Shown: positions 12,996 to 56,140 of the stretch, in pieces
Position numbering within the stretch: position 1 is the first letter of the stretch
Layout of the letters: the number at the start of each line of letters is the position of its first letter
NCBI GenBank assembly: GCA_024137785.1
Contig: JAHRHZ010000021.1
Span: 26,863,321 to 26,927,320 of the forward strand
Reading direction: 5' to 3'
Length of the DNA stretch: 64,000 bases
Origin: Ginglymostoma cirratum
Lineage: Eukaryota
Made by a program: the position numbers and the translations under genes
The notes under the pieces: generated by a model
The model's database searches: none
The model's input: only the letters and a program-made list of their open reading frames with translations
What the model was told of the DNA's origin: nothing

Positions 12996-13139
12996 GATAA
13001 TAGGTACTGCAGATGCTGGAGAATCCGAGATAACAAAGAAAATTTTCTGATGAAGGGTCTAGGCCCGAAACGTCAAGCTTTCCTGCTCCTATGATGCTGC
13101 TTGGCCTGCTGTGTTCATCCAGCCCCACACCTTGTTATC
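12996..13139. mobile_element. Short PLE-terminus-derived element with a hammerhead-like core and 16-bp target-site duplication (TSD)
   Basis: Flanked by aggcattgtataatga at 12980-12995 and 13140-13155. Sequence is shared with copies at 15.0, 20.3, 21.3 and 40.1 kb. Confidence 0.85.
13043..13078 (+). ncRNA. Minimal type I hammerhead ribozyme-like motif
   Basis: CTGATGA (13047) A GGG-tctagg-CCC GAAA CG TC. Stem I is weak (ttt/aag). Confidence 0.65.
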
Positions 13140-14978
13140 AGGCATTGTATAATGACTTTTTGATGATTAACAGTAATGTTGCATATGCAGAGCACAATGA
13201 TCTCAGTCTTGATCATGTGCACTGGTGCACAGGTAAAGTTGTGATCTCCGATAATGTGCAGTATTATGTTAAGAACATAATTAGTAACTTTGAGCAACTC
13301 AGTTGACATTACTTCAATTTTTGCAACTGCTAGGGAGACATAAATGGTCGAATCACTTTTCTTTCTCTGTCTGAGATATTTTGGTGGTAAACACTTCTTT
13401 GTAGTACTTTCCTAAGTTTAATTACTGTAAGGAATAGGCTGTTCAGCCCGTCAAGCCTGCTCCACCATTCAATAGGATCCTGGTTGATCTGACATTCCAC
13501 ATGTCCACATGACAGTCATACTGGACTGGTAAATTGCATAGGTTCGATTTATTTGCAAAGCTCTAGCAAGTTTACTGAACAGACAAACTACTCACTTGCA
13601 ATTACAGAGCACCTGATAAATACATCCCTCCTCTAGCAAGCTATTGGTCAGAGTCCTCATGACTGCTGGTCATGTGGGGTCATCCTGGCGCTTGGTTCAT
13701 TTGCATATTCATCTCTTAAAGCAGTAACAAAATATCTTCTTTATTATCACTCATTCGCCGCCCCCCCCCAATAAAAATTACATACATTAAGAGTGAAAAT
13801 ACTCAAGCATTAGGTTGTTACAAAACTGGAACAAGAATTGAAAAATGGACAAGTTTAAGAGTCTTAGAGTTTTATGATGGAAAGGTAGTTTGAGAATCAT
13901 TTGGATCACATGGAGGGATAATCTTCTAGAGATCTGATCTTCACACTGGTTGTTCTAGGCTTGTACATGTGTTGGTCTTTTGTGTGTTGTAAAGATCATT
14001 GGTTGATGTCATGATGGTTTTCCACATCTCCATTATCCAAGCATATGATTCTGCGTTCTATACAGAGTTGCAGTTTCCCAAATGGGATTTTGTTCCTCAC
14101 AATGTTGCTCATTATGGTTTCACAACATCAAGGATCGCTGCACACTTTGGATACCTCTGCAGGTAATCAAGCTCCTTGGGTAGGACATGTGACTCTTAAC
14201 CTTCTGTTCTCCATGTAGATTAAGCAGTTCCACACATGCAAATCATCATGTACCACCTTCATTCTCCCTTGTTTTCAAGAAGTTTATTCTGTATTTCTGA
14301 GAATTTAGACAGTTGATGGTTAGGCAGTGTTGTCAAAATTTATCTTTCACACAGAGTCTTTGCTGATGGTAAGCCCATATCCAAAGGTGAAGCTGTTGGG
14401 TGTAGCATTGCAATATGAAAACCCTGTTTTGTCACGTTATTCTTCATGACAAGTGCTTCAATGGTACAAACTATTTGCTCAGTGACAGAATCAGATCTGA
14501 GATAATGTGGCAAGGCTGTTACATGGTTTATTTCCATTTGGCACATTCCCTTAAAAGATCTCCCTGTATATTGTAGCCTCTTATCAGATAGGATCTCCTC
14601 AGGTATACCAAATAGACTGAATATTGCACTCATTATGTTTGCTATGGGGACACTCGAAGTGCCCTTTAGCTCTCTGACAATTGACAATTTGGAAAAGAGT
14701 CAGTGACTTGGAGAAAATTGCTATCATGTATGGCAAATAAATCTGTTGTGATTTTGGTTCTAGGAATTGACATAATTTTGAGAATGTAGCTGTTCTTTTT
14801 ATTGCTGCTATTAGGGACTCAGTAAGGATGTGTGAGGCTTACACAATGTTCTCAATGTATTTGTTGACCCCTGGCCAATAGAGTTTCTCGTGCCAGATAT
14901 CTTGTTTGCTTGATGCCCATAAGTCCCTGACATAGCTGTGATAAGTTCTGGTGAAAAGCTTCAGGGACAAATACTTTC

Positions 14979-15202
14979 AGAGATAGTAGGAACTGCAGAT
15001 GCTGGAGAATCTGAGATAACAAGGTGCACAGCTGGATGAACACAGCAGGCCAAGCAGCATCAGAGGAGCAGGAAAGCTGATGTTTCGGGTCTGGACCCTT
15101 CTTCAGAAATGCTTTTCTGACGAAGGGTCCAGACCCGAAACGTCAGCTTTCCTGCTGCTCGGCCTGCTGTGTTCATTCAGCTCTACACCTTGTTATCTCA
15201 GA
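14979..15202. mobile_element. Palindromic PLE-terminus-derived element with hammerhead-like cores on both strands
   Basis: Inverted arms at about 15010-15109 and 15114-15202. Plus core CTGACGA (15117) A GGGT-ccag-ACCC GAAA CGTC. Minus core CTGAAGA A GGGT-ccag-ACCC GAAA CATC. Confidence 0.85.
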
Positions 15203-15222
15203 ATACTGGTGTGTTTTTTTTA

Positions 15223-15355
15223 NNNNNNNNNNNNNNNNNNNNNNNNNNNNNNNNNNNNNNNNNNNNNNNNNNNNNNNNNNNNNNNNNNNNNNNNNNNNNN
15301 NNNNNNNNNNNNNNNNNNNNNNNNNNNNNNNNNNNNNNNNNNNNNNNNNNNNNNN
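15223..15355. other. Assembly gap
   Basis: Run of N. Confidence 1.
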
Positions 15356-16149
15356 AAAGGGCTCAAAATTTTAATTACTTGACTTATATGTCAACAGTTC
15401 ATAATCGTCTAAAGTCTATTTGCAAGTACCATTTGTGCAGTAATTTTTCCCTTAGAACCCAGTGTAATTGTAACTTCTCCACTGTTTCAAATCCTGTCTG
15501 AGAGTCATTCCTGTGGTTTTGAAATTTGCATCGCTGTCTTCCTTTCTTTAAAATATTATTGCTGATCACCTTGTCAGAGTCTTGTGCTGTTGCTGAGCTA
15601 ACTGCTGCTTAGGCTCCTGGTGGTTGCTGGACATTGTGGAGTCATCCTGATCCTTGGCTTATTAACATACTTAGCTCTTAAAGCAGCAACAGCACAGTAA
15701 CTATTTACGTGTTATGACTGACCTCAGCCCTTCAACTCTATCCAGATTCTGCAAGCTAAAATTTACGCAATTTAAACGCAACACAATCATCATAGTAAAA
15801 TATCCAACTCAGAACTTGCTCACAGAGTGTCAAATCCACCAATTTTCATTTTTTTCCTCAATTCCAGCAGTCATTGTCTCACCCTCGCCGCTGTTTCTCT
15901 GCCTGTAGCTGTTTTACTGTATTTTTATGAGCCTTGACTGGGCATCACTCTGGAATGTAATCTTGTCTTTATGTCTACCTGTGTACACTTCCAGTTAAAG
16001 TCAACAGCCAGTCAGCAGAAGAAAGAGTCGGCTTAATATCCTTTGCCTTAACTTGACACCCTGAGGCCAATTTTAGTATCAACATCTTAGCTCTGGCTAA
16101 AATCTGTAACCTCTTCACTGGTCAGACGTAAAGCCTAAACTTGGGATGA

Positions 16150-16505
16150 AATGTTAGCATAGTGATAACACAACGGGATGAGTAATCCAGAGGTCAGGGC
16201 TAACACTCTGGCAAATATTGGTTCAAATCCCAGCATGGCAGGTGGTGGAAATTCAATTCCGTTAATAAAATCTGGAATTAAAAGCTACGGTCTTTGATTG
16301 TGACCAGCATCTAAAATTCTAACTGGTTCAGCTATGCGGTTTTAGGAAGGGTAATCTGCCTCCTGGCTCCATCTGGTCTCCATGTCTCTCCATACCCACA
16401 GCAATACGGGTGATTTTTAACTGCCCACTGAAATGGCCCAGCAGTCAAGGATAATCAGAAATAAGCAGCAAATGTTGTCCTGCCCGGTAATGCCCACATT
16501 TAATG
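16150..16505 (+). mobile_element. tRNA-derived SINE (family 3) with LINE-like tail
   Basis: B-box ggttcaaatccc. The 3' end aataagcagcaaatgttgtcctgcccggtaatgcccacat resembles the 3' end of the LINE at about 9000. Confidence 0.75.
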
Positions 16506-17089
16506 ACAGATTAAAAGAACCCCTTGTGTTGACAAATTTATTGCTTTTTTTTATAATAATTAACCTTTATGCATTAATTTCAACCTAAAGTTATCAAAAC
16601 TGGCATGAGAAATTATACTTTGGAAAATTATAACTTTGTTGATATACAGATGACTTTAAAATGAAACGTACTTTTGCAAAAGCATTAACTCTAATAATAT
16701 AATTTATTGGTAAGGTGACAGATATTGTTTCAACTTTTACAAAAATCTAAAAACTTCCAAAACGTTATTGAAGAAATGTGAACCCATATCTTCCTTGGAG
16801 AAGTACTCACTGTCAGACCCATCACTCTGTTCCTACTTTCTTTTTAAACGCAATAACCAAGCTCTACATTTCTGCTCAGGACTTTGAATGTTGACCTCTT
16901 CAGAAGTGAGGAGTGTATTTTATACCAGAGTCTTTCTTTATAGCAGGGGATTTTCAGGGGAACCCAAGTCAGACTCCCTTACAGAGCATCAGTTGCCATT
17001 TTCTGTGAAGTATTCACTAACACATGGAAAAACTTTGAAACCAGCTTTTTTTTTTCACTGTGCTAAAGAAGCAGATGAGGTGTAGTCAG

Positions 17090-17590
17090 TGTGTAAGGAG
17101 ATGGGAGGTGAGTCAAGTGTGTAAGAGAGTAGGGTTCAGTGGAGGATGGCAGCTGCACATGTTTCATGGTAGGCAAGGTAGTTGGATGGCAGAGTAGTGA
17201 AGTGATAGGTAAATTGGAAGATGGGTAAGCTGGCAAGTGGGTGGGATGGGCAGTTGGGGAGTGACTGATCTGGGAATTAGTCAGGATGGGTAGCAGAATC
17301 AGTTTGGGTCAGGGGATGGGGTAGGGAGTCAGGTGGTGTTGCCTCAGTTGGATTGGGTCTGGGTGCAGCGCGGGTGTCAGTTGGGTTGAGATGGTTATTA
17401 GGTTCTAGTCAGGTCTAGACCAGCCAGAAGTTGATGGTTGAGGAGTCAGATGGTCAGGAGGAAGGGATGTCAGAAGGAAGTGGTGAACTCCAGACAGGCC
17501 AGAATAGCGGTTGGGAGTTGAGGTGGTGGGAGCTGGGAGATTCAGTAGAGTTGGTCAAGGAGTCAACAGGGTAAACTGGGGTGGTCAACT
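17090..17590. repeat. G/T-rich low-complexity tract, probably inside an unclassified repeat
   Basis: Many GGG runs and gtcagg/gttggg units. Confidence 0.6.
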
Positions 17591-20299
17591 GTACACTTAC
17601 CCAAGAAGAAACACTGTTTTCAATTTGTCAAACATTTGGGTTCCTATCCAGACATCAGAACTTACCAAAGTCTTCAACTGTAAATCAGAGTCGTAGACCT
17701 TTTCAAAGGGTCTCCAGGAACAGGTGATTTGCCCATCAGAACTTCAAGCTTTCCAAGCAATTCCCAAAGACTCTGTGAATCAGAAACTCCAAGGGCACCC
17801 GCACACATATCTCGTCAAACATCCAGTCCTCAGCTATCCAAAGACAAGATGATCTGGGCCACTGTTTTGTACTGCCTAATGTATTCCCCAAGTATGACTG
17901 AACACATAACAACATCAGAACTTGTGTCGATCGCATGCATTGCTACTGCAAAAGAAATGACATGCTTCTGACAGTAAGCTCCTCTGAGATCTACAGCTTT
18001 GCTTGTCATAATCCAGGTATGTCATGTTTAGTGGACAAATTACTAGCAGGTCTCAGCTGGTTGCTTAACACTAAAAATCCATGTACAAGACAAGAACAAG
18101 TCCTACTTATGGAATTACTTTCAAAGGGAAATTGATCAGTTAGCATTATTTTTCATCCCCTTAATGGAGTAATAGTTCGGAGTTTGTAAACTTATATTGT
18201 GTGCACGTATGATAGAGACGCTGAAAACTGGTCCTTTAATCCCAAAGGTGGCACACACATTTGTGACACTTCAAAGAGAAAATATAAAGAATAATTGGTG
18301 CTCTTCAGAAATATAAAATGGCAGAGCCAAGATGAGCACAAATGCTTAATTGATCTTTGTGCTAACTCAGCTTTTGTATACTCAAAATTTATTACATTTT
18401 GTGACCTTAAAAGAACACACAAGCACAACAGCTAAACAATTGTACATTAAAACAAATTTGAAACTTGTCACATTGGTGGAAAATGAATATTTTGGATCAA
18501 GGATGCACAAGAGAAACTGGCTAATTTTCTCTTCCAGTAAATAATAAATCCATCAGTTTCTACAATGGCTGACCAATTCATAATACAGGTTTATAGCCAA
18601 ACAGCAAGTTGAAAATCTGTATTTAACTTGGTACAATATTCCAGCTCTCAAACAGTCCATTCACCAACTAACAACTGCTAACAAATGAGATACTGATCAA
18701 GAATTTTACATATGCATGCAATTCCTGCTTAACATTGCAATTCCTGCATAAAGAGACAAATTCACTTCATTCCAAGCTTTTCCAGTAACATTACGTACTA
18801 GAATGGCAGTGGACAAGGTTTTCAAGTCGAGGATTGGGACCCAAAGCCTCTGATTTTGTTTGGAATTGGCAACTAATCTTAAAGCGGGGACAAATTTAAA
18901 TGTGCAATAAAACCATTGTAAAGCAACCATCTGACATGGCTAAATCAAAGTCAGCAGAAGGGGAGGCTGAGCACTGACAACCCTGGCAAGGGTAGCTCAC
19001 AATTTACCAATGTGATTTTGGAGATGGTGTCAGTGACAGTACATAAGAGAGCAGGGATCTTGTTTCTAGAAACTGACAGGTAAAGAACACTCTGTCAAAC
19101 ATGCTTGCTTAAAGATGGCAGAAAGTGTCAGGAGACAGTGCTGTCCACAAAATCTGAATGCAATGGCACATGTGGTTTAATGGCCTCCTCAGTTCTGGCA
19201 AGAGAGAGACTAATGCAACATCGGGATGACAGGTCTGTAGTTACCAGCAGTCACACCAGCTGAGCATCATCAGCATGGTGTGCCTGAGCATCAGAGATCC
19301 AAAAGTCCACAGTATTTATTGACCTGTCAGCAAGGATTAGAGCCCTAGCATTTTCCAGGGCCTGGTAACATTGGTAAATGCAAGGTCTTAATTAAAGAAA
19401 CCACATTGTTGAGACCGACCATTGCCTTACTTGGTAATTCTGGCAGGACCAAAAGGAGCAGAATTCAAGTAAGCACAGGAGGAGCAGTCTTCCACCTCTC
19501 TATCCTCAGAGTTATGGAGGTGGTAATGGCAATAGAGATTCCCAATAGAGTGGTACTGCATAACCACATGTGCAATGTAGATGTGGGATTACATGGAGAA
19601 TGGGTGAAAGAATATTGAATTGGAACGACAAAGGGAAAGGCATTCACTCTCCCCTGTCTAATAAATGGCCTAAGCCCCAACTACACTGGAAAGTCTCAGC
19701 TGAGGCCTCTGCTGTTAGAGGCAGTTCTCATACTTTGGCTTTCTGTTTCCCACAGGGACAGCTGTCAATGGGAAGCATGTCAGCACAGCAGCAGCATTAG
19801 GGGGGGCTTCTGATAAAACTATATGAGCAGACTAGGAGCATCAGAGCATTCAAGTGCATTCTCCACTGGTGCAGACACACTCAAATAGAGAGGTCCTTGT
19901 ATGTGGGTCAAAAAGGAGACACTGGATGAAGAGCATGATGTAAGTGAAGAGAAGGAGGTGGTGAGTGTGGCGACTGTGGGCAATTCCCCTCAGATGATGG
20001 AGGATAGACAGAGACATGCTGAGTGGAACACAGATGCAGGACCTCGGAACTTAAGCAATGTGGCACCACTTTGACCAACAATGTGAGATATCTGCCCAAA
20101 TGTCAGATTTTCCTGAGATACTGTAGAGTCAATGGCTGAGAATAGAGAAATTTATTCAACTTGTGTGCACCTCCATTGATACACTCAATGACAACCATAA
20201 ATGGTAAGACTCCAAGTGGATATCAGAACAACACCTTGACATGCACAGAATGCATGCATTGTTCCAGCCCTTTGATAAGCCAGTGACACTGATGGCGTG

Positions 20300-20429
20300 A
20301 AAGAAAACTTCAGAAGCTGGAGTCAAAGATAACAAAACAACAGTCAGAGAGCTGGAAGAACACAGCAGACCAGGCAGCATCAGAGGAGCAGGAAAGTTGA
20401 CATTTCAGGTCAGGATTCTTCTTCAGAAA
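20300..20429 (-). mobile_element. PLE-terminus-derived element, single arm, decayed hammerhead-like core
   Basis: Aligns by eye with the left arm of 14979-15109. Minus core reads ctgaagaagaatcctgacctgaaatgtc. Confidence 0.8.
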
Positions 20430-20544
20430 CAGAATTATTCAAACCTTTAAGCTGTCTTCAGGGTGGCATGAATATGAGGGCAGATTTGATACAGGTGTGT
20501 TTCTACTGAGTTTTATTAATTCAGCAGGTTTGTATGATCCAGGA

Positions 20545-20649
20545 ACAAAAACTAAAGTTGCTGGAAAAGCTCAGCAGGTCTGGCAGCATCTATGAAGGAA
20601 AACAAAACAAAGTTAATGTTTCAGATCCGGTGACTCTTCTTCAGAAACC
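20545..20649 (-). mobile_element. PLE-terminus-derived element (second subfamily) with 11-bp TSD
   Basis: Flanked by atgatccagga at 20534-20544 and 20650-20660. It is the reverse-complement homologue of 22758-22857. Confidence 0.85.
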
Positions 20650-21274
20650 ATGATCCAGGAGTCATTTTGCTCTGCTTAGGAGAACTCCCTGACATTACAG
20701 CCTTGAATATATCCACTTTTGCTGCCAATGCCTAGTCCATAACTCTCCAGCGGCCTTTGTCCTTATTCAAATATCACTGCTTCCCTTCTGTATTTCACAT
20801 TTTCAAGCCTTGACTTTAAGGAATGTGATCCCTATATCTGGGAGCATGGCTCAGTATGCCCAATGTTACAAATAAGTTACAGGATGCACATTCAAAACTA
20901 AAATTAACCTAAGTGAATTCAATCATGCTTTGACTGTTGAGATGGTCTCCAGTCTCAGTCACCTCTGTGCGCTCCTCTTGCAGCCTTGGATGAGTTGGAG
21001 GCATTGACTTCTGGGTGTTTGTTTGGATGTGAGACATGCAGGATGATCATTCTCCCCAAAGAGGTGCCAGTGAGAGACCTCCCAGAAGATGCTGCGCCAA
21101 TGTTCATGCAGGGGTGGGCTGTGTTACAGGACCATGTTGCATGGAGGGTGTTTTAGTCAGGTGGTCAAGAAGGTCAGTGGTACCTCATCCTCATCAATGA
21201 CTGCCTTAACTTTGGCACGCTGGATAGCTGGAAGGAATCACCAGGTGGGGTCTGACTGGCATTCACTCCATGTA

Positions 21275-21371
21275 GAGATAACACAATGTGGAGCTGGAGG
21301 AACACAGCAGGCCAGGCAGCATCAGAGGAGCAGGAAAGTTGATGTTTCAGGTCAAGACCCTTCTTCAGAAA
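21275..21371 (-). mobile_element. PLE-terminus-derived element, single arm
   Basis: Minus core ctgaagaagggtcttgacctgaaacatc; same body as the 15.0 kb copy. Confidence 0.8.
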
Positions 21372-22309
21372 TGGTCTTTCCGGAGGGAGGGAGGACAATT
21401 TCTTCAAGGTGGGCATCCTTTAACATCCACTGACAGGGCATGACGAGCAGTACTGTGAGGTCTGAGATCCTTTCTCAATGATGGTACGAATCTCAGTGAC
21501 CACCTACCTAGGTAGGCATGGTCTCCTGCAGTATTGGTGCTCTGACATGCCTAGGTAGCTTCTTTATGCAGAGACTATGGCCTATATGTTCTTCCTATTC
21601 TTCATTTCTCTCCTCTGCTTTTCTCATATCCTGGGCTCTGGTGTTTGCTCCTACAGACAGTGATCTACTTGGCCACTGATATCCATCTTGAAGTACCTTA
21701 ATTCCATATCTAGCTATTAATTTGATCATAGTCAAATCCAATCTAAATGATTTCTGTTCACCATGCCCTTTTCACCACCACCCCAAATCAAGCCACAATC
21801 CCACAACTTCGGAAGGTCACAAACCCTCCTTGAATGTTTCAATGCATGCAGACCACTCGCTCTGCTAACCCTGCTCACTTAGTGGTACCTGTCTCAAATG
21901 ACACACACAGCCTTTCACGTATCTAACTAATTTAGTAGCATGATGATGAGTGAATCTGGCTGTTGTATCATCTCCTTCCATTTGGACTGTTCCAGATTTA
22001 TTGTGGAACCTGAATTTCCCCAAAAAAATAGCAAAATAACATTTAGAAAGCTCGTGAACAACTTTAATGGTCAGTAACCTGAGTCAGGTGGCTACACTCC
22101 ATTGAGCAAAATTGTCAAACATCAAAATGGCACCATTATACCAGAATTTTGTCAACAATAATTAAACCTGCCTACCTACCCCTGTTCCTGTCATTAAAAT
22201 TGGATCAAAATTCTGTTCAGTATTTTCACAAGTGAACCACTGCTACACCGAGTAGCTTTAAGAAGTAACAGACAGATATATTTGCACAGAGAATGTTACA
22301 GTCTATTCC

Positions 22310-22709
22310 NNNNNNNNNNNNNNNNNNNNNNNNNNNNNNNNNNNNNNNNNNNNNNNNNNNNNNNNNNNNNNNNNNNNNNNNNNNNNNNNNNNNNNNNNNN
22401 NNNNNNNNNNNNNNNNNNNNNNNNNNNNNNNNNNNNNNNNNNNNNNNNNNNNNNNNNNNNNNNNNNNNNNNNNNNNNNNNNNNNNNNNNNNNNNNNNNNN
22501 NNNNNNNNNNNNNNNNNNNNNNNNNNNNNNNNNNNNNNNNNNNNNNNNNNNNNNNNNNNNNNNNNNNNNNNNNNNNNNNNNNNNNNNNNNNNNNNNNNNN
22601 NNNNNNNNNNNNNNNNNNNNNNNNNNNNNNNNNNNNNNNNNNNNNNNNNNNNNNNNNNNNNNNNNNNNNNNNNNNNNNNNNNNNNNNNNNNNNNNNNNNN
22701 NNNNNNNNN
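22310..22709. other. Assembly gap
   Basis: Run of N. Confidence 1.
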
Positions 22710-22857
22710 GAGAAAACAGAATTAACGTTTCGGGTCCGGTGACCCTTCCTCAGAACAGTTCTGAGGAAGGGTCACCGGACCCGAAACGTTAATTCTGTTT
22801 TCTCCTCCACAGACGCTGCCAGACCTGCTGAGCTTTTCCAGCAACTTTGTTTTTGTT
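22710..22857. mobile_element. Perfect palindromic PLE-terminus-derived element
   Basis: Arms 22710-22756 and 22758-22804 are exact reverse complements (47 bp, 1-nt spacer). The left arm runs into the gap. Confidence 0.9.
22757..22794 (+). ncRNA. Minimal type I hammerhead ribozyme-like motif (mirrored on the minus strand at about 22720-22757)
   Basis: agtt CTGAGGA (22761) A GGGTC-accg-GACCC GAAA CG TT aatt. Stem I pairs AGUU with AAUU. Confidence 0.7.
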
Positions 22858-25108
22858 CAATCAAGGATCTCATGGTCAACAAGATCCACCTGGTTCCAAT
22901 CACTCTGGTATTTTTTTGGCAGAAATATGAAACAGGTGTTACCAGATAGAGTGACCTTTAACATTCCACCCTTTCTTAGGAATTTATGTTACTCCACACT
23001 GGACATTGTTTCTTGGGTAAATTGGGAGAATAGACAGAGGGGCACTGGGCCAGAAATGAATTCACGTCCATCCCTCTCTGAAACCTTAAAAAACAAAAGA
23101 TCTCCTTTTTGCAATTAACCTGAAGCAGTCCTGTTAAGATAGCTCAATGCTAGACACCGATACACCCAGTATTTCACCGAATATCCACAACCAATTGAAA
23201 AAAAAGAGTCGAAGTCTTCTCCACATCATAAATATGCTGTTTAGCATTTTGATTCTCACTTGATCCAAGTGGCCCCAGTAAAATAGCACAGCGAAGCGTT
23301 AGAGTCAGAATTTTCAGCAAGTATCGCACTGTGCTTCAAGCTGCTAATGCCCTGTTGCTACTCAAACGAACAATTTGATATCACCACCACGTCAAGATTT
23401 TTGTTGTTTCAATAGGAATTGATGAGTTGGAAAAGTCAGGCTTGATGCGAGTAGTGAACATCTTGACTGAATGTATTTGAAAGGGAGTTCAAATTATCAC
23501 CCCAAATGTTTTCCTATTGGTTCAAACAGCACCTTCCTTACCCACTAATTGAGCAAATATACAAGTGTGCTGCTTCTTCACATTGTACTTTTCCCAAAAA
23601 AAGGCATCTAATATTTAATTGTGTTTACAAAAATAATGTAATAAGATTTGTTTATTTGAAATAGCATTGGGGTTATAAAAGCAGGTAGGATTGAAACACA
23701 GCTACATAATGAACATGAAGAAAATGATAATTTTAATCATATCTCAACACACTATATTGGCAATGATAATGTTGGCAATTTTACCGTATACTATTATGAT
23801 GGAAGAAGTGAAAGCTACAATATCTTACCAATGTCACAAAACAGTATTCGTTAATGAGCCTAGGGAAAATGTTTGTGATACAGCCAATTACAAAAACAAA
23901 GCTTTAAACATATTTTTATGATGTTCATATATATGCACACAGGGAAATAACTGACACATCTAAAGCCATCACACCGCATGTGACAAAACCTACTGAGTTC
24001 CCTTTGGCACACTCATTTCTTGCATTGTGCAAAACCACTTGAAAACATGCTTACAGACTACTTGTCAGTTGAAAAAGAGCAGTAATGAGATCTGGAGGTT
24101 TATGACAATGGTCCTCAACAGCTTCAAATAATACTGTATAAATCATGCAATCTCATTCAAATTTATATTACAATTCACCACACACATGCTACTCAAAAAG
24201 ACAGGAGTGACTTCTACACACACAGGCAGCATATCTAAGACAAAAGTCGGCTGCGAAATGTTCGCATCAGAACAAAATTATCTGGAAAACTTAAAAAGTG
24301 AATAACTGAAATAGGACAAAAATCTAATACTGCCTAGATTTTGATTCGATTTTATCACAAAAGAAATATAACTATAGTGTATTGGTTCTCTTTATGCTAT
24401 GTTCAGGCAAAGTGTTGAAAACAATTATACTGATTTGAATGTACAAGTAATATATAAAACCTGTAATAAGCTCTTACTTTACTATTACAATGGTCTTGAA
24501 TTGCACTACTGTAACCCTCATAACCTCCATCAATCACCATCATTGTGGGAGGGTTGCCAATAATACAAAGCGCTAACCTGGCCCATTTACATTGCCCTGT
24601 AAGATATTACCTATAATTTCTATCAGTCCCCACACATGGATGGATTGACAATTTTTTACTTCAAGCACTAGGTTTTGCAGAGTCAGAAATTCATGTAAAA
24701 GGTTTTGTACCCATCTATATTTCTTATGGCTTGTGGCACACAAAACTGCACTCAGATTCCTAAAATGCCCATCTGGTGTATGAAGATCCCCAATCAGGGT
24801 ATAAACATGTAAATGTAGCTATCATTAAAAAACATTATTTTATTCTCAAAGATCAATTATATGCACAGCATAGCAATTTATAAGTTCACAGATTCTGCAA
24901 ACCCAGCAATCTACCCAGTATAGTACTCCACAGTTGTACTCAAAAACATGAACTTCAATCCCATGTTAAACATTACCGTTCTCCCTTCTATTATTCAGGA
25001 ATCAGCCTGGAAGCAAAACAAAGCACGTCATGCATGGTATCAACATCAAAAAAATACTGAAACCCCATTCGTGCTTCCTCAGCCATTACCTTGAAAACAG
25101 ATATAAAA

Positions 25109-25441
25109 GGGCAGCAGATGGCTCAGTGGTCAGCATTGCTGCCTCACAGCTCCAGGGACCAGGGTTCAATTCAGCCCTCAGGCGACTGTCTATGTGGAGT
25201 TTGCATGTTCTCCCCATGTCAGCATGAGCTTCCTCCGGGTGCTCTGGTTTCCTCCTACACTCCAAAGATGTGCAGGTTAGGTGGATTCATCATGCTAAAT
25301 TGCCCATAGTATCCAGGGACGAGCAGACTAAGTGGATCAGCCATGGGAAATACTGGGTTACAGGGTAGGGGGGTTGGGTCGGTGTGGACCTAATGGGCCG
25401 AATGACCTGCTTCCGCACTGTAAGGATTCTATGATTCTATG
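25109..25441 (+). mobile_element. HE1-like V-SINE, full length
   Basis: tRNA-like head (tggctcagtgg, gggttcaattc), V-domain (gtggagtttgcatgttctcccc...cctccgggtgctctggtttcctcc) and CR1-like tail gattctatgattctatg. Confidence 0.92.
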
Positions 25442-25982
25442 CAGCACTTTAACTCCTGTCCTTATTTCAAAGTCAAGGTCCAACTGCTTTTCTCTCAACT
25501 AACAAATCCACAAATCCTCCCCAAATCTTTCCCCTGCTCTTGCCTGTCTCACCTCTTGCACTTGTCTGCTTGATCCACTCTCCATTTAATTTCTTGACTA
25601 CTCGTGCTGGTCTTCCTGCTTGCCAATATCAAAAGTGTTTTCTTCGTTCAAGTTCTGTCATTTTACCTTTCAAAAATATAGCCACAATTCAATCTCTCAA
25701 ATATACCTGCATTTTAACTGGCCTTTCTTCTGCTCATCTTGCTTTGAGATTTTTAACGGTGATTTTACCACCTAGTTCCATGCTCAAAGCCCTGTTCAAA
25801 AAGTTTTAGTCCATCTTGCATCCCATTTACTCAATTCACCAAGTAAACAAAACCAAACAAATCTACGCTCCATAGCATTAAACACAGCAAACCATAACAC
25901 CACACACCTCATCAATGTCTGCTCTTCCTGGTATTTTTACAGTAATAGAGAGATCCAAGAAAATCCTTTTGACACCAACCAC

Positions 25983-26926
25983 TGTTATGTCCCAGCTAAT
26001 GTTATTACCAGGGAAGTTAGATCCCAGATGGGAACCTACCTTGACAAATCATTTTTAAAAATTTGTTTTGGTTCTAACAAAGTGGTCATTTGCTAAATTA
26101 TAAACACAATGCTGCAAATATTGCTTTAATCATGAAAGATTTTTATTATAAAAGAAATGAAGATAAAATAGAACAATCTAAACCACCTACTCAAAATACA
26201 AATTCAAAAATTTTTAAACACAAAATAAAAATATCATCTCATTACCCCAAAACACTCTGTTATAAGGTGAAAAGTAACAGAATAGTATTTTTATGGTACC
26301 CATCATTCATATAATACTCAGAATTCTTGCATCTTACACCTTGCTACATTTAAGTTACTTGTGAATTCAAACTTATACTTGGACTATGATAGTTTTTTTT
26401 TACCTGGAGCTATCATACTAAAATGTACTTGGCTTTAAGTAATCTTTTCAGAGTGTTATCTCAACACTTTTGGCCTGGGACTAACACCAACTCTTCACTC
26501 CAACGTAACCTATTGATATATCCTTACCTTTTCAGGTACACTTTTCTACACAGCCATCCTATTCCAGGGTCTTCACAGGACTGCTCACTCAAAGTCAAAA
26601 GTAAAACTAAAAGAGTCTGTCTAGTTAAGCTAAAGGGCTCCCTTCTGTTTAAAACCAGTTCCTGAACTCTCTAACAATCTCATTAATTACATGCTGAGAC
26701 AAAAAACAACCTCAATAACCACTAGTCATCAGTGGTGCGCAAAACACATCTACTCTAAAGGCAGGCTTCAAAACTGTTCTTTTCAAAACAAATCACCATG
26801 GCTACAAAAATACTTATTAGTTAATAACTAGCTTCAGCCACATAGAAAACTCATTGGTTACTAACTAAAATATCAAAAACTCAAACTCACCACAAACAAA
26901 ATTAAAAATTATACATATGAATCACA
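25983..26926. mobile_element. Possible solo LTR
   Basis: Begins tgttat and ends atcaca. No TSD seen. Confidence 0.3.
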
Positions 26927-27664
26927 CTGTTCACATTACACCTATATTCTTCTTTGTTACAGACTTCACCTCCTCGTTGGCTGCACACTCAAATTGTACA
27001 TATAAACTTGGCTTTCCTAATCAATCTAGAGTTGAGTTTCAAATTGTATATCCATCACAAAGATCCTTTAGTTCAAACTGCGCAATATTGTTTGCATCTG
27101 TCCCTAACTCATCCTCTGGTTTCTTCTCAAACATTTTCATATGATAATGTATATGCGTGTATATATGTTTTCTAACCTTATTTTTATAGCTTCTTGTGTA
27201 TTGATGGCAAAATCTTCAACCATCCTGATATTACTTTCTAAACACACTTCCCCTGCATCCTTCTCTACCTATCTCTCTTTTTAATAGCCTGTCCACATTT
27301 GGCTTTCAGTTATCTGTGTCCTAACCCAGTTACCCCACCACATCCCCTCCCAAATTAGATCAAGGCATCAACTCATTTATTTTTCTCTCAAAATGTTTTC
27401 GTGATTATCTTCATTAAAAACACCCTATGATTATGAGTTGTTGTTGAAAGTAAACCTTCATATTATTTTCCCTCACAAAAAGAAAGTGTCTCAGATAAAG
27501 TTGGAATATGGATTGGTTTGATATCTGTTACCACAGATGTGCAAATTATGGGGAACTTTACTGGTGTTGAAAATGGCTTTCCTGGCTTTTTTGACAACAC
27601 ACAGCAGTGGCAGGGATTACCAATAACAAATCCTGGAATGTTCTGTGAATCATCGCTTTTACTG

Positions 27665-28365
27665 ATGAATGAATGATTTTATTGTCACGTGTATTTTACA
27701 GTGAGAAAAACAGTAAAATATAGTGAAAAGCTTTTCCATTGTCACCATGATCCAGCGCTGTTTTGAATCATTTTAAGAATAAGAAAAGAAAAAGATATAG
27801 CTTAAAGACAGTCCATCAGCCCTGAGCCAGCTCACCATCAATGATGCCTATGCTGCCATCCCTCCTCCACCACCTCACCACTGCCTACACTGGACCCAAC
27901 CAATGTTGACATCACCATCATTCAAGTGCCATCTTTCACTGCTGGGCCAATTCTCCTTTTGCCACTGCCTCGCCACCACCTGTGCCAGACCCACTAATTT
28001 CAAGTTGCATCTCTCGCCGCTGGGCCCACCTCAATGTCACTGTGATGTCCTTCCGCCGCTGCCAGTGCCAGACCCAAAAAACAACAAAGTTACCGATCCT
28101 CAGGCACCATCTTTCACTGCTGGGCCTACCTCGCCAATGTCGCCTCCACCACAGCTGCCAATTTTGATGCCAAGTCCCAAGATTACCCCAGAAAACCAAG
28201 TAGGGGCTCACCCAAGTCTGCACCGGGCCAACTGCTGCTGCTGCCATCCGAGGTCAGACAAGAGGTAAGTAAAGGAGAAGAAAAAGAAACAAGAAAGAAG
28301 TAATAAAGTGAAGCGGGTAGAACGGATGAGCCCAGGCTCATGAACCCTACTCCATCACAATCTTG
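27665..28365 (-). mobile_element. Non-autonomous LINE-derived element with internal duplication
   Basis: (GAAT)n followed by tttattgtcacgtgta...agtgaaaagc looks like a LINE 3' end on the minus strand. The C-rich body repeats ccatctttcactgctgggcc at about 27929 and 28107. Confidence 0.45.
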
Positions 28366-29859
28366 ATAACATACTTGAATCATGCAAAAATGCTCAGAGG
28401 TGTAGTCACAGACAGCTTTAGAATTGTTCACTAAATCAAGCCCTAGGTTCCTGAGAAAGACAAAAGCTTATCATAGGAAATCATTAAAATGCACCTAAAT
28501 GGACATAAGAAATGTTTTTGAGCAGGTACCTTGTGCCATCCTTGCAAGTTCTGAAAGTTTATGTACAGAACTTATTTCCACTATCAAGAAACTAAAAGAT
28601 TCAATAGTTGAATAAATTAAGTTTTAAAAGAAAATAACCAAAGAAAGCAAACACTAAATACGATTTTAGTTAATTCCCTATCTTCTAAAACACAGAATCA
28701 ATATAAATTAAACATGAACTAACATGCAAATTGCCATCAATGATAGACTATAAATTACATAATAAATGGCAGGTACAACTAAAACAGCTTCCAAAAATTG
28801 GTTCAGCAGGTCAAACAATGTTTGCATCATCAACGTTAGTCAGAAAGCCCTTCAAAACACTACCATGAAAATTTGACCACTTCCTTGAATAGTCTGATTC
28901 CCAGTTTACAGCAGGCTAAAACCAACCCATGTTCCACAGATATGGTCTTCACAAAAAAATGGCACTCTTCTGCAGAACCTTCTCAAGTTGGTATGGTTGG
29001 AATCAATCCACCAATGATATCTGAAAGTAATAGAAACAGCTCCAGCAACAATATTTTTGTTTATTCTCGGTTTCTGGATCTAGCCTCTATCTTCTTCATT
29101 CTGCCTTTACTGCACCATTGGACTCATCACCCACTGAGCTTCAATGGCTGTCTCCTTCTATGTAGTTTCAACCAGGGATTTTGGTTTTCAATCTCAATTT
29201 CAGCCTTAGTTTCCTTAGCAACTCGGAAGGTCTGTTTGCTTTCTCGGTTTTCCTTTCCAATTAGCGTATGTCTCAAAAACTACAAGCTTTCAATCATGGA
29301 TTCCATCACAAACTCACAAAAATGGCCATGTACTCCAGACAAGTTAATGGGCTTGGTGAATTTCCATGTATTACATCCTTAAAGGAGGGTGTTAAAATTA
29401 AGTCTGTCTTTTTAGGTGCAAGGACACTATCAGGCATTTTTTAGGTGCTAAAAATATTAAATTGGTAACGGTGAACCAAGTAAGTGGCTTTGTAGAGAAT
29501 GTTACAGTCATTCATCTTCAGTTAAAATCAAATTACTCAATGGTAGTGGACTAAATACTGATTTAAAATGCTTATTCTATGGTAAATCCATTTTCAGCTG
29601 CAGGAATAAAAAAAGAACATGTTAATACTCGCAACAAACACACCAATGTACTTGACACCAAGAAAAACAAAGCATTCTAAATCATTACCTCACTGTGGTT
29701 GTTCATGAACAAATTTTGTGTTGTGGTTATGCAAATAAATTGAGTTTGAGCTTAAACTTTAACTTTGTTCTGCCAAACTAGTACACTTTGCACCAGATCA
29801 TCAACTGCACTCAAAGCAGGTACTCCACTCTTGGTTGTCAACAGTTTGTTTTCTTTATT

Positions 29860-30490
29860 TCTTCACAGGGTGTGGGCATCACTGACAAGGTCAATCTTTG
29901 TAACCGATCTCCAATTGCCTTTGATTTTCCCAATTGCTCATGAACTGCTTCAGCCTATGTGCCATCGGTATTCCACAGCACTATCAGAAAAGAATTGCAG
30001 GTATATGACTCAATAACAATGAAGGAATAGAATCAGAATGGCATGCAACTTGGTGTAGATCTAAGAGGCATTTGTGCTCCCTGTTGCCCTTGACTTTCTT
30101 TGATGCAGAGGTTACAGGTTTCAGAGATGGTATGAAGAAAGGCTACTCTGGGAGACGCATTCTGATATAGTCTTGCAAGGCAGCAAAGACTTACTGTGTT
30201 GTCTCTGACTCCAGTATCTGTAGTTCTTGCTATCTCCGAAAGACTTTTTGGCTCTTTGCACATTTCTGGTGCTCGAATCTGGTGCTTAGGTCAATCCCGG
30301 TGAGGGGGTGTGCTCTTTCAGTTCTGTTTTTATTATGAATTATTGTTGCAGGTTTGACACAATTGACTGGCTTGTTAAGGCACTTTAGATGGCAGTTCGT
30401 CAACAATAAAGTAAGGACGGCAGATTTCTTTTATAAAGGTTGTTAGTGAACCAACTGGCAATTTTGTGACTACCATACTAGCTTCTTATT
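29860..30490 (-). mobile_element. Decayed LINE 3' end (family of the 9.0 kb copy) plus SINE family 3 fragment
   Basis: gtgtgggcatcactgacaagg...ccaattgcc and agtaaggacggcagatttc...gttagtgaacca match the other copies. Confidence 0.55.
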
Positions 30491-30499
30491 CTAGGCTGT

Positions 30500-31300: not shown

Positions 31301-31499
31301 CACTTTTCTGCTTACAGTCCTCTGTAGTAAATTAAAAATAAACTGAAATTAAAAGATATTACATTATGGATGTTGTCGTTTGTCCTCCTCTTCTTTATCT
31401 TCCACCTTTTCCTAATCCAGTGCTTCCACAGCCCACTGGTAGAGAATTCAAGGCGTTCACTTACAAAGTTGAAATTTGTCTCCATGTAAGTCCTAAATG

Positions 31500-37164: not shown

Positions 37165-37370
37165 CGGGGTTGCAAACTATCTTTCCAACTGAGCAAAGCA
37201 GGGTGATGCCAACAGTATGCGTCCAATTCCTATACGAGCTGAGGTTATCATGATGGTCCCACCTTCTCAATCTCATCCCTTGCCTGAGGTATGGTAACCC
37301 ACAGGTTAAACTACCACTAGTTATCTCTCTCTAATGAGACAGCTGATCAAGGGGACCATGATGACTTCAC
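37165..37370 (+). mobile_element. tRNA-derived SINE (family 1), second copy
   Basis: Homologous to 4636-4855 (gctgaggttatcatga, ccttctcaa, tgcctgagg, caggttaaac, ctctctaatga). Confidence 0.75.
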
Positions 37371-37469: not shown

Positions 37470-37920
37470 TTTTGTTGACATTACATTTCAATCCCAACAA
37501 ACAAGAACATTGCACTCAATTCAGGGCACTTCACCAGAAAGGATACTGAGGTTTCAAAGATGGTGTAGGAAAGATTTGCAAGAATGCTTCTGTGGATGAG
37601 GGAAAAGAATGCTCAGAGGAGATTTGGTAGGGGTGTTCAAAATCATAAGAGCTCTAAGGCAGAACAGACAGAAATAATTCCCATTGGCAGGAATGTTTTC
37701 TTTTATTCTGAGTGGAGTGAATGGTTAAGTTCTCGAAAGTACTGCCTGAGAATGTAGTGGGGTTAGATTCAAGTGCAGCTTTCAACAGGGAATTGCATAA
37801 TTTCCTGAAAACAGAAAATTTTCAGACCTTGGCAAAAGATCAAGACAAGCTAAATTGCTAATTCGGAGGGCTAGCACAGACACAACAGGCTGAATAGATT
37901 CTTTCTGTTCTATGATTCCA
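37470..37920 (+). mobile_element. CR1 LINE 3' fragment, old
   Basis: ggagatttggtaggggtgttcaaaatcat and the tail tctgttctatgattc. Confidence 0.65.
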
Positions 37921-52049: not shown

Positions 52050-52640
52050 ACAGGAACTGACTGGAAGATGACAATTGTCTCACAGTAACAAGTCCAGTTT
52101 GGGACATCTTACTTTAAGAGGGATATGGAGATCAAGCAGAGGGTGAAGAACAGACTCATCAAGATGATGCAAGAGCAAAGGCTTCAGTTTGGAGGGAACA
52201 GTATGAACTGGTTGCATTAAGCCAAAAGTAAATGTTAAGAGTGAAACTGATAAGAGTTGTTCAAAATTATTACAGGTTTTGATAAATTAAATCAGGAAAA
52301 TCGATTTTGACAGCTCAGTTAATCTGCAGAAGACCAACATTTATATAAGTTGAAGCACAAAAGGGAAAATTTGAAATAACCTGTTATATGCAGAGTTTGT
52401 TTGGAAATGGAACTTATGGTGTAATGAGATTAAATGATGATGTAACTGGTCAAATGACTGATTTCATTAAGAGAGAAGATATCAGTCTAGAATGAGCATG
52501 TCAAGACAGAGGTCTTAGATATTATGTGAGGGAGCTGTATTCAAGAAGCTACTATGTAAATAGAGGAATGTTACAGCACATAAGGAGTTGAACAGCTTTG
52601 CATAGTACAAAGAGCAAATTGGCTCAGGCACAGTGTATGT
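52050..52640 (+). mobile_element. CR1 LINE 3' fragment, very old
   Basis: gtccagtttgggacatcttactttaagagggat resembles VQFWxPYFKKD; also gagttgttcaaaattatt. Confidence 0.5.
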
Positions 52641-52719
52641 GCAGACACTCAGCCCTAGATAATCCAGACACGTACATGCAGGTATTGACAGCAATATTGG
52701 CTTAAAGTACAAAATAAAA

Positions 52720-54560
52720 TATGGTGGCAGTTATGAAAAGAAACCTGCGCCGGTATCTAAACTTAAAGCAAAGTCCAAAGGATTTAGCTGAAAAGTAGCA
52801 TTCCCACAAATCTTCCTACCGCTGAGCAGACTCTGAGATCTATGCAGAATCGGAATTCAAGGCCGTGATCAGTGCACTGACAGTAATTCACAGAACATCA
52901 CAGCAGCTGGGTGCATAGCTGAGAGGAACCACTGCAGAAAACTTAAATCTCAGAAAACAGGCCAAGATCTCAGAAGAGGTCCAAGAGAAAAGTACTGGAA
53001 AAGATGATGCTTGAAGGAAGGGGAAAAGACGTCGGAAAGTCTTTTATTCGAGGGCAATACAGCAGGAAGGCTCTGAAGCTTAGGAAAAAGGAACCTCAGA
53101 AGACTTTACGACCTAGCAACTACAGCATTAAATTGAAAATACATCAATGGAAACACTTCCATACTAAGAAGGAAACATCCAAATGGTCAGTCAGGGACGA
53201 TTGTCTATAGGGATAGTAGGTTCAGTAGACACTTTGTCACTAACTCAACCATTTGATGATTTGAAGGCCCAGCTGAGGCCAAAAGTGAAGGCTCTAGAAG
53301 CAGAAGTTTCCGTGTGCTATAACGGTTTCAGACTTACACGTGAAGGAGCAGCAACATCAACAGCACTTTTTTTATATATTCTGTAGCTCCAATAGCTGAT
53401 AATATTCCAGTAAGATAAACCACAGAACAAAGGACAACAGAGTATGAGGTATTGATTAAAACATTTGACATGTACTTTAGGTCATAAAAAATATAGTTAT
53501 AGAATGGACAAGCTTTTATCCGTGTTCTCAGTTTTTAGGAGAATCAATAGAAGCTTTTATAATGGATTTATGTCATCAGGCAGAATATTGCAGTCTCATG
53601 GCATTGAAACGTAAATTAATTAGAGGCTATATAGTAGTGAGAAGTTGTCAGATTTCCCTCATTCTAAGGAGGCCTTGACACCCGAACAGTGACAATCTAA
53701 TTCACAGCACAGACAGAAATCAGAGTCCAAAATCAATTAGTGCTGCAGGGAAACAATGGGGATTCTTCTGGCAATAGGTGGGTGGGTAGACCCCAAAATG
53801 GTGCTGTCACCATCCTGTAAATCTGCCAAAACATCACAGTGTAAATTGACATCATCAGTTAACAGCACTTTCACCAGCTCAAAAACACAGAAATGGGCCT
53901 GCAAAAGGCAAATTTCCATAAAATGGTAAACATGCAACAAGAAAAAAGTTCAACAAGTTAATGATACAGAACAATATGTGTAGGCAACATTTCAAGTTGA
54001 GGTCAAAGAAAGTCAATACTGATTCTAGACCATCAATTTGAAGGCACTCGGCTTTGAAACAAAATTTAAACTTGATGCAGGAGCAGCTGTTTCAATATCG
54101 ACAGTTAGTTTGCCATGGCTGAAGTCTGTGAGTCAGGCCAGCACGTATAAAATCCTAAAGTCCAGGAAAAACAAAAGAAATATTCAGGATCAGGAAGAAA
54201 TTCACCATTTTTGAGCCAAAAAGTGCAACTGCATATGATTTTCACAGGATGCAGATAAAGCCATGCCTAAAATATATCAACCAAAGTACAGAATGGTGCA
54301 ACTATTCGAGTCAAGACACAACACCAAACACCCCAGTGTTAAACTCAAGCAAACCAAATGTTAATCATTATAAAAACTTAGTAAGTAAGTATAAGTAATG
54401 TACTGGAATAAAGTAGACCAAAGGTGAGAAACTTAGGGGAAAATGTGGAATGCTCAGAGTCCTGTAAATGATTACTTGACTCTGACAGCAAGGGAGAAGA
54501 TACCATCGTAGAATAAGCATGTAAAGTGACAGGTCTAAGACAACTTGCTTTGCACAAATG
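52720..54560 (+). mobile_element. Decayed Ty3/Gypsy internal region (gag-protease remnant)
   Basis: tttaaacttgatgcaggagcagctgtttca (about 54065-54095) gives FKLDAGAAVS, resembling the aspartic protease motif FKLDTGA. A PBS-like tggtggcag lies at 52722. Confidence 0.5.
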
Positions 54561-55089
54561 AAAATAATGACTGTGATGAAGGTTCATATTATATCATTAT
54601 TGCTTGGGAACTTGGATTTGAAGGTGAAGAAATGATATATAGCTTTAAGTTTGTTTTGTGCATGTTAAGAAAGGAAGGACATAATTTCAGTTCCAGTTCA
54701 GAGTTCTGTTAGTAGTGATGGGCTGTCTGGGAGTTTTGCTTTTAAACTGTATTTAAATGACCTTTTTTTTTTACATCCTTGAGGTTCAGTGCATTAGAAA
54801 CAGTTGTAGAAGCCAGGAAGAAAACTAGGCTATTGCCCAGCACCAAGATGTTCTATGAAACAAGGAGACAGAGACAAAAACAAATTCATTAAGAAAGATG
54901 GTGTACCTTTCACCTAGAATACGGTAATTCAGATAGAAACTACCTATAACAGTATCAGTGTTGTTTAGCAGTCTCCAAAATAGTCAGGGTAGAAGAAACA
55001 TCCTGAGTGGTTTATAAGTCAGTGAGTAGAAAGCTCCAGTAACCAATTACAGTTCTGCCTACTAACCAAAGAACTTGAATGAATATATA

Positions 55090-55630
55090 ATAAATCACTG
55101 AGGCTTTTTATCCCTTGCTCATCAGAATGAAGGCACAAGAAACTGAAAAGGAGACACCATTTTGTACAGCATGAGCAGAGGGTGCTAATTGTTTGGACCA
55201 TAATTGGCATGAAGGTGCTGCAAGAACAGTTAATGGTCAAATTTAATTCTCAGACCAGGAGGTAGATTCTGATGGGTCAGGCCATTGCCATAGGATACAA
55301 GTTTGTCTGCTGCCATTAATATATTTTTGAGAGAGGTGCAATGTATATACAAATTCCTTCTGCCTACATAAAGCAGGGCCCTGAGTAATTATGTGGCTTT
55401 GAGCACATGCAAATGATTCACACTGCGAGCCCAACTGATGATCTCAAACTGGTTTACAGTGTAACTCTTGGCACAGTCTGGCTTATTTAATAAATGATTT
55501 CCAATAGCAGAATCACATCTGATGGGTGATACACTTCTCTGAAATTTGCAAGCAATGGCCGGTTGAGCATGAATAGTGTGAAGCCAACTACAAATGGCTA
55601 AGAGGACATCTTGTCTGATACAGTTCTTGT
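55090..55630 (-). mobile_element. Penelope-like element: GIY-YIG endonuclease C-terminus and 3' region
   Basis: ORFs 55389-55646 and 55243-55434 join by a frameshift to give DSAIGNHLLNKPDCAKSY..QFEII..ARSVNHLHVLKA..ITQGPALCRQKEFVYTL, resembling the PLE endonuclease tail (SAIxxH..F.IL..LEAxYI..PxL). Confidence 0.8.
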
Positions 55631-55769
55631 TGCATCTCCAAGCCAATGATGCCCCAACTGATCATCTAATGCTGTATGAAACGGCGTCTCTTACGTCTAT
55701 TTGTTATATCCCACTTCCGATGGGTGCAAGACAAAAATGTTCAATTTCTAGTCTTCTTTTGGAAATGGT

Positions 55770-56140
55770 TATAAACAAAAATATCACTGCATACACTCAG
55801 TAGGTCTGGCAGCATTTATGGGAGAGTTAGTGCTTCAGATCAACAGCCTCTCTTCAAAACTGGAAAACGTTAGAAATACATCATGGGTTAACAAAGTAAT
55901 GAGGTTGGAAAGGATGGGGTGGAAGTGTGGAAAATGAAAGGGAATTTCTGCGATAGAGTGGAAAGCAGGACAAATTAAATGACAATCCAACCATTGAATA
56001 GACAGTGGAAGACAGAAAAAGATGTTAACATCACAGATAAAAAAACAAAAGATGAGAAGTGGAAATGAGAACATCAGTAATATTGCAAAGAGCTGCCATC
56101 TAAAAATGGGACAATTGTCATGATAGAAGCAACTCATCAA
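55770..56140 (-). mobile_element. Old PLE terminal region with a decayed hammerhead-like segment and purine-rich body
   Basis: actcagtaggtctggcagcatttatgggagagtta...tcttcaaaactg is homologous to 20545-20649. Confidence 0.6.

Follow-up and report, generated by a model that had tools for sequence, protein, structure and literature searches.

Short hammerhead-bearing repeats in a Ginglymostoma cirratum contig as probable terminal copies of Penelope-like elements

A 64,000-nucleotide stretch of the Ginglymostoma cirratum genome (NCBI GenBank assembly GCA_024137785.1, contig JAHRHZ010000021.1, positions 26,863,321 to 26,927,320 of the forward strand), referred to below in its full length as the window, contains nine dispersed short repeats, most of which carry a recognisable hammerhead ribozyme core. 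The question raised by this locus is whether these repeats constitute a separate non-autonomous and retrozyme-like family derived from the termini of Penelope-like elements (PLEs), as the initial annotation had proposed, or whether they are by-products of the autonomous elements themselves. Sequence comparison confirmed that the body of the repeat is shared by all nine places, and we conclude with high confidence that the nine repeats are 5′-truncated, often inverted terminal copies of three autonomous PLE families encoding reverse transcriptase (RT) and GIY-YIG domains. With nearly the same confidence, we consider them likely dead-end products, formed when the element protein copies only the last module, of 100-130 nt, of its RNA.

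Three subfamilies, the number distinguished earlier, are found in the window: family A at 13.0, 15.0, 20.3, 21.3 and 40.1 kb, family C at 45.5 kb, and family B at 20.55 and 22.7 kb and probably at 55.8 kb, where the assignment is made only via a 25-26 nt match. Their connection to autonomous elements is provided by the 4.36-Gb assembly, in which a GIY-YIG search returned 22,577 first-look candidates, of which 150 were scored and 96 passed; 20 loci were fetched. The family A repeat lies in sense downstream of the GIY-YIG frame in 19 of these loci, and the twentieth runs into N. At L042:3341-5290, an open frame of 650 amino acids shows a GIY-YIG match of 28.2 bits (cut-off 22.6), a YIDD motif and an RVT_1 match of 25.3 bits (E 1.4e-5, below the 29.6 cut-off), and the hammerhead core begins 256 nt past the stop codon of this RT plus GIY-YIG frame. 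The end of a homologous frame, with 52-60% identity to that of family A, was found upstream of the repeat in 6/25 family B loci; a frame end was likewise found in 3/25 family C loci and in 5 of 10 fetched long copies of the CCA-loop subfamily of A. Linkage to RT/GIY-YIG reading frames of PLEs, which had been named beforehand as the test of the proposed origin, thus holds for all three families. In addition, the hammerhead-plus-tail module directly precedes the predicted start codon (at about +165, on a scale where the hammerhead C3 is 0, minus is 5′ and plus is 3′) in 7 of the 25 loci that contain the 5′ part of the frame, and the module is accordingly present both downstream and upstream of the frame, in the partial tandem arrangement known as a pseudo-long terminal repeat (pLTR). 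Frame linkage in all three families and the module in front of the start codon together identify the repeat as the pLTR and tail of three PLE families.

The translations of families A and B contain a CX4CX2C linker between the RT and GIY-YIG domains. A zinc-finger-like CX2-5CxxC linker marks Neptune elements and is shared by Nematis (PMC8557442), and, judged from the linker alone, the source elements would be of the Neptune type. The best named relatives of the element protein come from Rhincodon (91%), Stegostoma (86%) and Chiloscyllium (77%), and point to a carpet shark as the probable host. Divergent PLE-like frames with 27-39% identity were also noticed in L049, L056 and L102, and indicate further PLE families in this genome. 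Separately, two proteins, P0061 (named as a kinase-domain isoform) and P0101 (named as an XIAP isoform), show matches that span 69% and 93%, respectively, of the PLE frame and are probably gene models that absorbed PLE sequence.

The best preserved arms read CTGANGA-A-(helix II)-GAAA-CG-TH, with stem II in four variants and each of the four bases at N7, exactly as first described, and the CpG-type decay of CG to CA/TG is seen at the 15.2-16.2 pair. The assignment of the motif to the minimal type I hammerheads of PLE terminal repeats also stands, as all three families have the CUGANGA and GAAA core, an extra base after A9, a paired helix II, a palindromic 15.2-16.2 pair and a UH cut site. The two strands of helix I differ in step between the families (UUU/AAG, AGUU/AACU and CAGUC/GACUG), in a comparison of three related lineages only. 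A strict descriptor, requiring the core, three helix II pairs, two helix I pairs and the 15.2-16.2 pair, gave 49 matches in the 852-kb sample defined below, 47 of them within these families, and none in each of 10 shuffles, so that the motif occurs far above chance. The description of the copies as hammerhead-bearing has to be restricted to the seven of nine window insertions with a recognisable core; the 40.1 kb copy begins 22 nt into the motif and hence lacks the core, both core halves are lost at 55.8 kb, and the strict descriptor is passed by 3/9 insertions or 4/13 arms (13047+, 15117+, 22761+ and 22753-).

In Rfam, the hammerhead families gave no match within the window at E up to 1, nor any at gathering scores in four long loci, presumably because the models do not cover the minimal hammerhead form; the Rfam matches that were obtained are sub-threshold microRNA models on hairpins and one tRNA-like head. 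Monomer folding of seven arms produced no hammerhead fold (z-scores -2.0 to +1.4), a result that is uninformative since the motif is thought to act as a dimer. We also observed that, in the predicted monomer fold at 15111-15152 and 13041-13082, the CUGA side of the core pairs with letters around the cut site, which would keep a lone motif inactive. Another minimal hammerhead, in which helix II is longer and helix I has 5 bp, was noted at L121:2632 (+), outside all three families. Two inverted pairs, at 15035-15176 and 45467-45643, resemble microRNA models of plants and animals at scores below the threshold; hairpins of this type might be annotated in error as microRNA genes, or yield real small RNAs.

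The shark motif shares with the minimal hammerhead ribozymes of metazoan PLEs (PMC4209133) the core, the extra base between A9 and G10.1, the G10.1-C11.1 pair, the palindromic 15.2-16.2 pair without a helix III loop, the short helix I and the occurrence mostly as single dispersed motifs, with some close pairs on opposite strands. In that work, the dispersed single motifs were ascribed to truncated PLEs ("probably related"), and the minimal hammerhead showed no activity in vitro as a monomer and weak activity as a dimer. Helix II measures 4-5 bp in the shark families, compared with 7-8 bp in the Schistosoma motif, and thousands of motifs per genome are reported there, single exact variants already giving 3108 and 5274 matches in the shark; sharks are not named in the accessible text of that source.

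The abundance of the repeats was determined on 112 unselected 10-kb stretches, 31 of which are all N, together with the window, amounting to 852,334 readable bases. With six single genomic copies as BLAST references, 185 insertions were found (102 of family A, 79 of B and 4 of C), that is one per 4.6 kb; the earlier estimate of one per 7 kb is correct within the window and too low for the wider sample. The density in four regions lies between one per 3.2 kb and one per 6.4 kb, extrapolation to the genome gives roughly 0.7-1.4 million insertions, and these short copies, or stubs, make up about 5% of the sample (41,474/852,334 bases).

It could be argued that the stubs form a self-propagating family resembling retrozymes or short interspersed elements (SINEs), in which copies starting at -3 or -4 would keep an internal promoter and both RT start sites, be transcribed, and seed new stubs via PLE protein acting in trans. 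The fixed 5′ and 3′ ends, which give near unit-length copies, and the size of at most 300 bp in 167/185 insertions agree with a SINE-like reading, pLTRs alone were sufficient for integration in trans (PMC3846280), retrozymes have been derived from pLTRs (10.64898/2026.07.22.740005), and the tree of family A contains a short-only cluster of six members, including the 15.0 kb copy of the window. As for the unit boundaries, the 3′ ends are fixed at two sites, and the 5′ ends fall at one point in 85/220 arms and are spread in the rest. However, copy lengths are continuous from about 40 bp to more than 2.5 kb. On the tree, built from family A arms that are free of N and span 0 to +88 (42 short, 26 long), the arms do not group by length label (19 changes versus 20.5 when shuffled, with 151/500 shuffles as low). 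The variant of the six-member cluster is not confined to short copies either: the exact CCA-loop variant has 3108 matches from -3 genome-wide, of which 846 extend with their own upstream letters to -10, and the fetched long copies with the frame's end upstream have been counted above. With the labels intermixed on a weakly resolved tree and long copies of the candidate variant at hand, SINE-like source copies were rejected. Moreover, the inversion junctions vary from locus to locus (of 43 end pairs, 41 are distinct), and head-to-tail pairs occur in 2/185 insertions, where they are partial, and nowhere in the window. Nor do the ends of the copies lie at the cut site.

This rarity of tandem arrays also led us to reject membership in the non-LTR (long terminal repeat) retrozymes, which are defined as tandem repeats (PMC7229834; 10.64898/2026.07.22.740005), their hammerhead units yielding circular RNA and the hammerheads of PMC7229834 being canonical. 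The shark copies have in common with them that they are small, non-coding, related to PLE termini and provided with a type I hammerhead, and dispersed monomers have been described for retrozymes too; they differ in being single or inverted, of variable length, with a minimal motif, and of the same kind as the frame-linked termini. The intermixed tree, the differing junctions and the rarity of tandems imply that stubs are made anew from the RNA of autonomous elements, and we regard propagation by the stubs themselves as highly improbable; the separate retrozyme-like family that had been postulated is therefore abandoned here.

The 3′ ends of 230 arms fall at site P (about +90 to +98) in 94 cases, at site T (+120 to +138) in 93 and elsewhere in 43, so that the terminal module of 100-130 nt consists of the hammerhead, end site P at about +94, a 33-nt tail and end site T at about +127. 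A TTATCTC-like sequence closes each of the two sites in family A. The 3′ ends point outward in 41/41 two-arm insertions, and 27 of the 29 classifiable inverted pairs combine one P with one T arm, the others being one PP and one TT (p = 8e-7 versus 50:50). Target duplications of at least 10 nt (10-17 nt) flank 27/38 testable pairs, compared with 5/320 shifted controls. Long copies take the same shape: L042 and L188 are duplication-bounded T+P inverted forms with arms of 0.9-2.6 kb (in L042, 0.9 kb for the T arm and 2.6 kb for the P arm). These regularities are best explained, we think probably correctly, by two-ended priming of a staggered break. The PLE protein of Anolis cuts and extends both target strands, using two internal start sites that bound the tail, with uncut RNA as the main substrate, and is predicted to be a dimer (PMC11167929).

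For rotifer PLEs with an inverted pLTR, a tail and duplications of 8-10 bp, palindromic junctions have instead been read as the result of self-priming (PMC3846280), and fold-back of a single cDNA, or of an antisense template, might be invoked for the shark as well. Pairs with equal 5′ ends (6 of the 27 P+T pairs) or with a longer tailed arm (5 pairs, counting differences of more than 5 nt) could be obtained in this way. In the remaining 16, however, it is the tail-less P arm that extends more than 5 nt further 5′, so that each arm has sequence missing from the other and neither was copied from the other; the overlap of the two arms at 13.0 kb amounts to only about 7 nt, and fold-back gives no reason why the second arm should end at P. 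We consider self-priming improbable as the origin of these inverted forms.

The 5′ ends show a different regularity. Among 220 arms located away from the edges of the sampled stretches, 85 start between -8 and 0 (34 of them at -3) and 3 between -29 and -9, the rest starting further upstream (30) or downstream of 0 (102), over a range from +102 to beyond -2000; in other words, 85 of the 118 arms that reach the hammerhead stop within 8 nt of its 5′ edge. Loci picked by the core pattern alone were short in 26/30 cases for family B and in 20/30 for C (by script; 17 by eye), mostly ending at -3 or -4. The letters upstream of short copies are unrelated flanks, and a spliced template was ruled out, as short copies have no common sequence beyond about -5. 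Ribozyme cleavage was likewise rejected as the origin of the 5′ ends: only 5/220 arms start at +28 to +30, where the cut is predicted, and there is no peak. All three families have A at -4 in a YYANWYY context, which we take to be initiator-like, that is, to resemble the consensus of transcription starts. On balance we slightly favor the 5′ end of the RNA as the cause of the pile-up at -3/-4.

A polymerase stop is the alternative to be weighed here, in which a protein-bound, folded hammerhead beside the start sites would end reverse transcription on leaving helix I; the copies would remain PLE stubs in either case. It agrees with the extent of the 5′ strand of helix I in two families (3 bp in A, which ends at -3, and 4 bp in B, which ends at -3 to -5), with the observation that the Anolis hammerhead cleaves only when the element's protein is present (PMC11167929), and with the passage of long cDNAs through the upstream hammerhead (13/15). 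Yet the enzyme would be expected to be arrested on the 3′ side of such a fold, at about +28 to +32, where there is no peak; family C has a 5-bp helix I and nonetheless ends mostly at -4, and the extra T at -4 in family A (25/47, where the template has A) fits untemplated additions at a run-off end. A stop of this kind appears rather unlikely. Two further candidates were set aside. The sequence AAACGT(C/T) resembles the downstream promoter motif of PMC2377424, and was dismissed because its spacing from -4 varies by up to 3 nt between families; a G excess at -8 in family B (18/26) was not repeated in a second sample (6/38).

RNA reads added little to this point. In a poly(A) RNA run, molecule starts do not pile up at the hammerhead, and depth is equal on both strands, mirroring genomic copy number; a second run gave 15 reads only, and neither run shows a start, a cut or a splice. 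Among the best-supported RNA-read joints listed, none is a GT-AG joint that would represent a 5′ leader intron as in Penelope of Drosophila virilis, in which the start lies 46 bp before an intron (PMC2377424).

Taken together, these patterns would be accounted for as follows. The endonuclease would cut both target strands 10-17 bp apart, and each DNA end would prime its own cDNA, one at P and the other at T, as the Anolis element does in vitro. Most templates would end at the 5′ edge of the hammerhead, which would be copied uncut, and the cDNAs would run off there or stop sooner before being joined head to head; gap filling would yield the target duplication, and failure of priming at one end would leave a single arm. 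Long copies may be made on tandem or read-through RNAs, starting in the downstream module. The strongest form of this proposal, in which the two ends of a 10-17 bp staggered break are both primed in every insertion, with one end per fixed internal site, the majority of templates begin at a discrete point in the first bases of helix I, and close to a million stubs record the reaction, is offered tentatively, at a little under even confidence. If it is true, the stubs would be run-off copies of a 5′ leader, similar to strong-stop products, and the hammerhead would mark the RNA start rather than a cutting point during insertion.

Several observations weigh against the proposal or its parts. No fully intact source element was confirmed among the loci examined, helix I has only 2 bp in older A subfamilies, and the tree that argues for de novo origin of the stubs comprises 95 columns with few resolved forks and weak support. 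As for priming, 12/41 pairs could not be classified as P or T, and single arms have a duplication of at least 10 nt (10-19 nt) in only 28/135 cases. As for the RNA start, the family A end at -3 misses the A at -4 by one base; no extra G of cap origin was seen upstream of the 5′ end; and of 30 copies that contain the frame start, 15 extend as far as the upstream hammerhead, of which only 2 stop in -8 to 0, versus 85/118 for the sampled arms that reach the hammerhead (Fisher p = 1.7e-5). Since frame-start copies mostly read through this region, one RNA start cannot account for all templates.

With respect to known systems, PLE membership is evident from the frame, the pLTR, the inversion, the tail and the duplication. 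Insertion units of endonuclease-containing PLEs of the Neptune type (PMC8557442; PMC3846280) likewise combine an RT frame with a C-terminal GIY-YIG domain and a Cys-rich linker, a partial-tandem pLTR with an adjacent inverted 5′-truncated copy, heavy 5′ truncation, a 30-40 bp tail at one end and a target duplication; in the shark, 41/185 insertions are inverted pairs, and the 33-nt tail is present on one arm only in 27/29 classifiable ones. The shark duplications of 10-17 bp differ from the 8-10 bp of the rotifer cases, and the density of one insertion per 3.2-6.4 kb, with about 90% of insertions below 300 bp, is unlike the accessible descriptions of Neptune-type units. Poseidon PAc of Anolis carolinensis (PMC11167929) shares the two RT start sites bounding the tail, the cutting and extension of both target strands, uncut hammerhead RNA as substrate and a module placed where the coding region begins; the PAc frame starts inside stem II, in contrast to the predicted shark start codon about 165 nt after C3, and the use of one site per end within a single insertion is not reported for PAc.

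The element class, the minimal hammerhead and the inverted-plus-tail form are already in print, and the family itself is ordinary. A literature search, which covered few subscription journals, found no paper that describes these shark families, the P+T rule, or a sharp 5′ end or pile-up at the hammerhead edge. What is added is quantitative, as the rule of one P plus one T and the 5′ pile-up give genomic support to a priming model so far based on work in vitro, and make the origin of the PLE tail and inversion, and the role of the hammerhead, testable. For annotation, stubs of this kind belong among the PLE fragments rather than among ribozyme genes or retrozymes, and their hairpins are to be expected to score as false microRNA matches.

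Within the window, four of the nine insertions (13.0, 15.0, 22.7 and 45.5 kb) are head-to-head inverted pairs, a feature absent from the initial annotation, and target-site duplications are clear at 13.0 kb (16 nt) and 20.55 kb (11 nt). The 13.0 kb insertion consists of a family A tailed arm, +84 to +126 and without hammerhead, at 12994..13036 (-) (BLAST versus a long genomic copy, 97.7%), and of a tail-less arm, -3 to about +92, at 13044..13139 (+), found by BLAST and the descriptor, whose minimal core occupies 13047-13074 with the predicted cut after 13074; its left duplication at 12980..12995 is identical to the 16-mer at 13140..13155 on the right. At 15.0 kb, a tailed arm of the CCA-loop subfamily, -5 to +127, at 14979..15111 (-) retains the core and has lost the helix III pair by CpG decay, and is joined by a tail-less arm, -3 to +96, at 15114..15202 (+) with an 11-nt internal deletion and a core at 15117-15144 that passes the descriptor. 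Single family A arms are present at 20306..20429 (-), an old copy from -3 to about +115 with a recognisable core, a broken helix II and 77% identity to the reference; at 21275..21374 (-), tail-less, -6 to +94, with CpG decay in the core; and at 40101..40206 (-), tailed, +22 to +127, without the core. A tail-only family A fragment at 30197..30241 (+), 81% alike over 47 nt, had been missed before.

Family B is represented by a single tail-less arm, -2 to +100, with a decayed core at 20540..20646 (-), found by BLAST and flanked by the 11-nt duplication at 20534-20544 and 20650-20660, and by the 22.7 kb pair, in which the arm at 22710..22756 (-) is visible from -3 to +43, the remainder lying in N, and the tail-less arm at 22756..22858 (+) spans -5 to +97 with its core at 22761-22790; both cores pass the descriptor. 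The heavily decayed family-B-like arm at 55780..55865 (-), with both core halves altered, was detected through BLAST matches of 25-26 nt. The family C pair comprises a tail-less arm with a decayed core at 45463..45559 (-) and a tailed arm, about -7 to +122, at 45550..45679 (+), whose core at 45557-45583 has lost the helix III pair by CpG decay.

Other features were also noticed in the window. A tRNA-headed SINE is present in two copies, at 25110-25432 and 42310-42665, which are 78-83% alike in three blocks and end in GATTCTAT; we take it to resemble the shark HE1 family. A second short repeat with a tRNA-like head occurs at 4640-4785 and 37199-37312 (74% alike; Rfam tRNA 26.4 bits, below the cut-off), and a third dispersed repeat with tRNA-like letters at 9887-9937, 42138-42200, 42778-42840 and 42924-42986, three of these copies lying within 850 bp. 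Among 30 stop-to-stop frames of at least 110 amino acids, 12 lie over N or repeats and the other 18 gave no Pfam match above the cut-off, the sole sub-threshold one being PF09095 at 51566-52027. Finally, a tandem duplication at 57435-57613 consists of two copies of an 89-bp unit with 92% matches.

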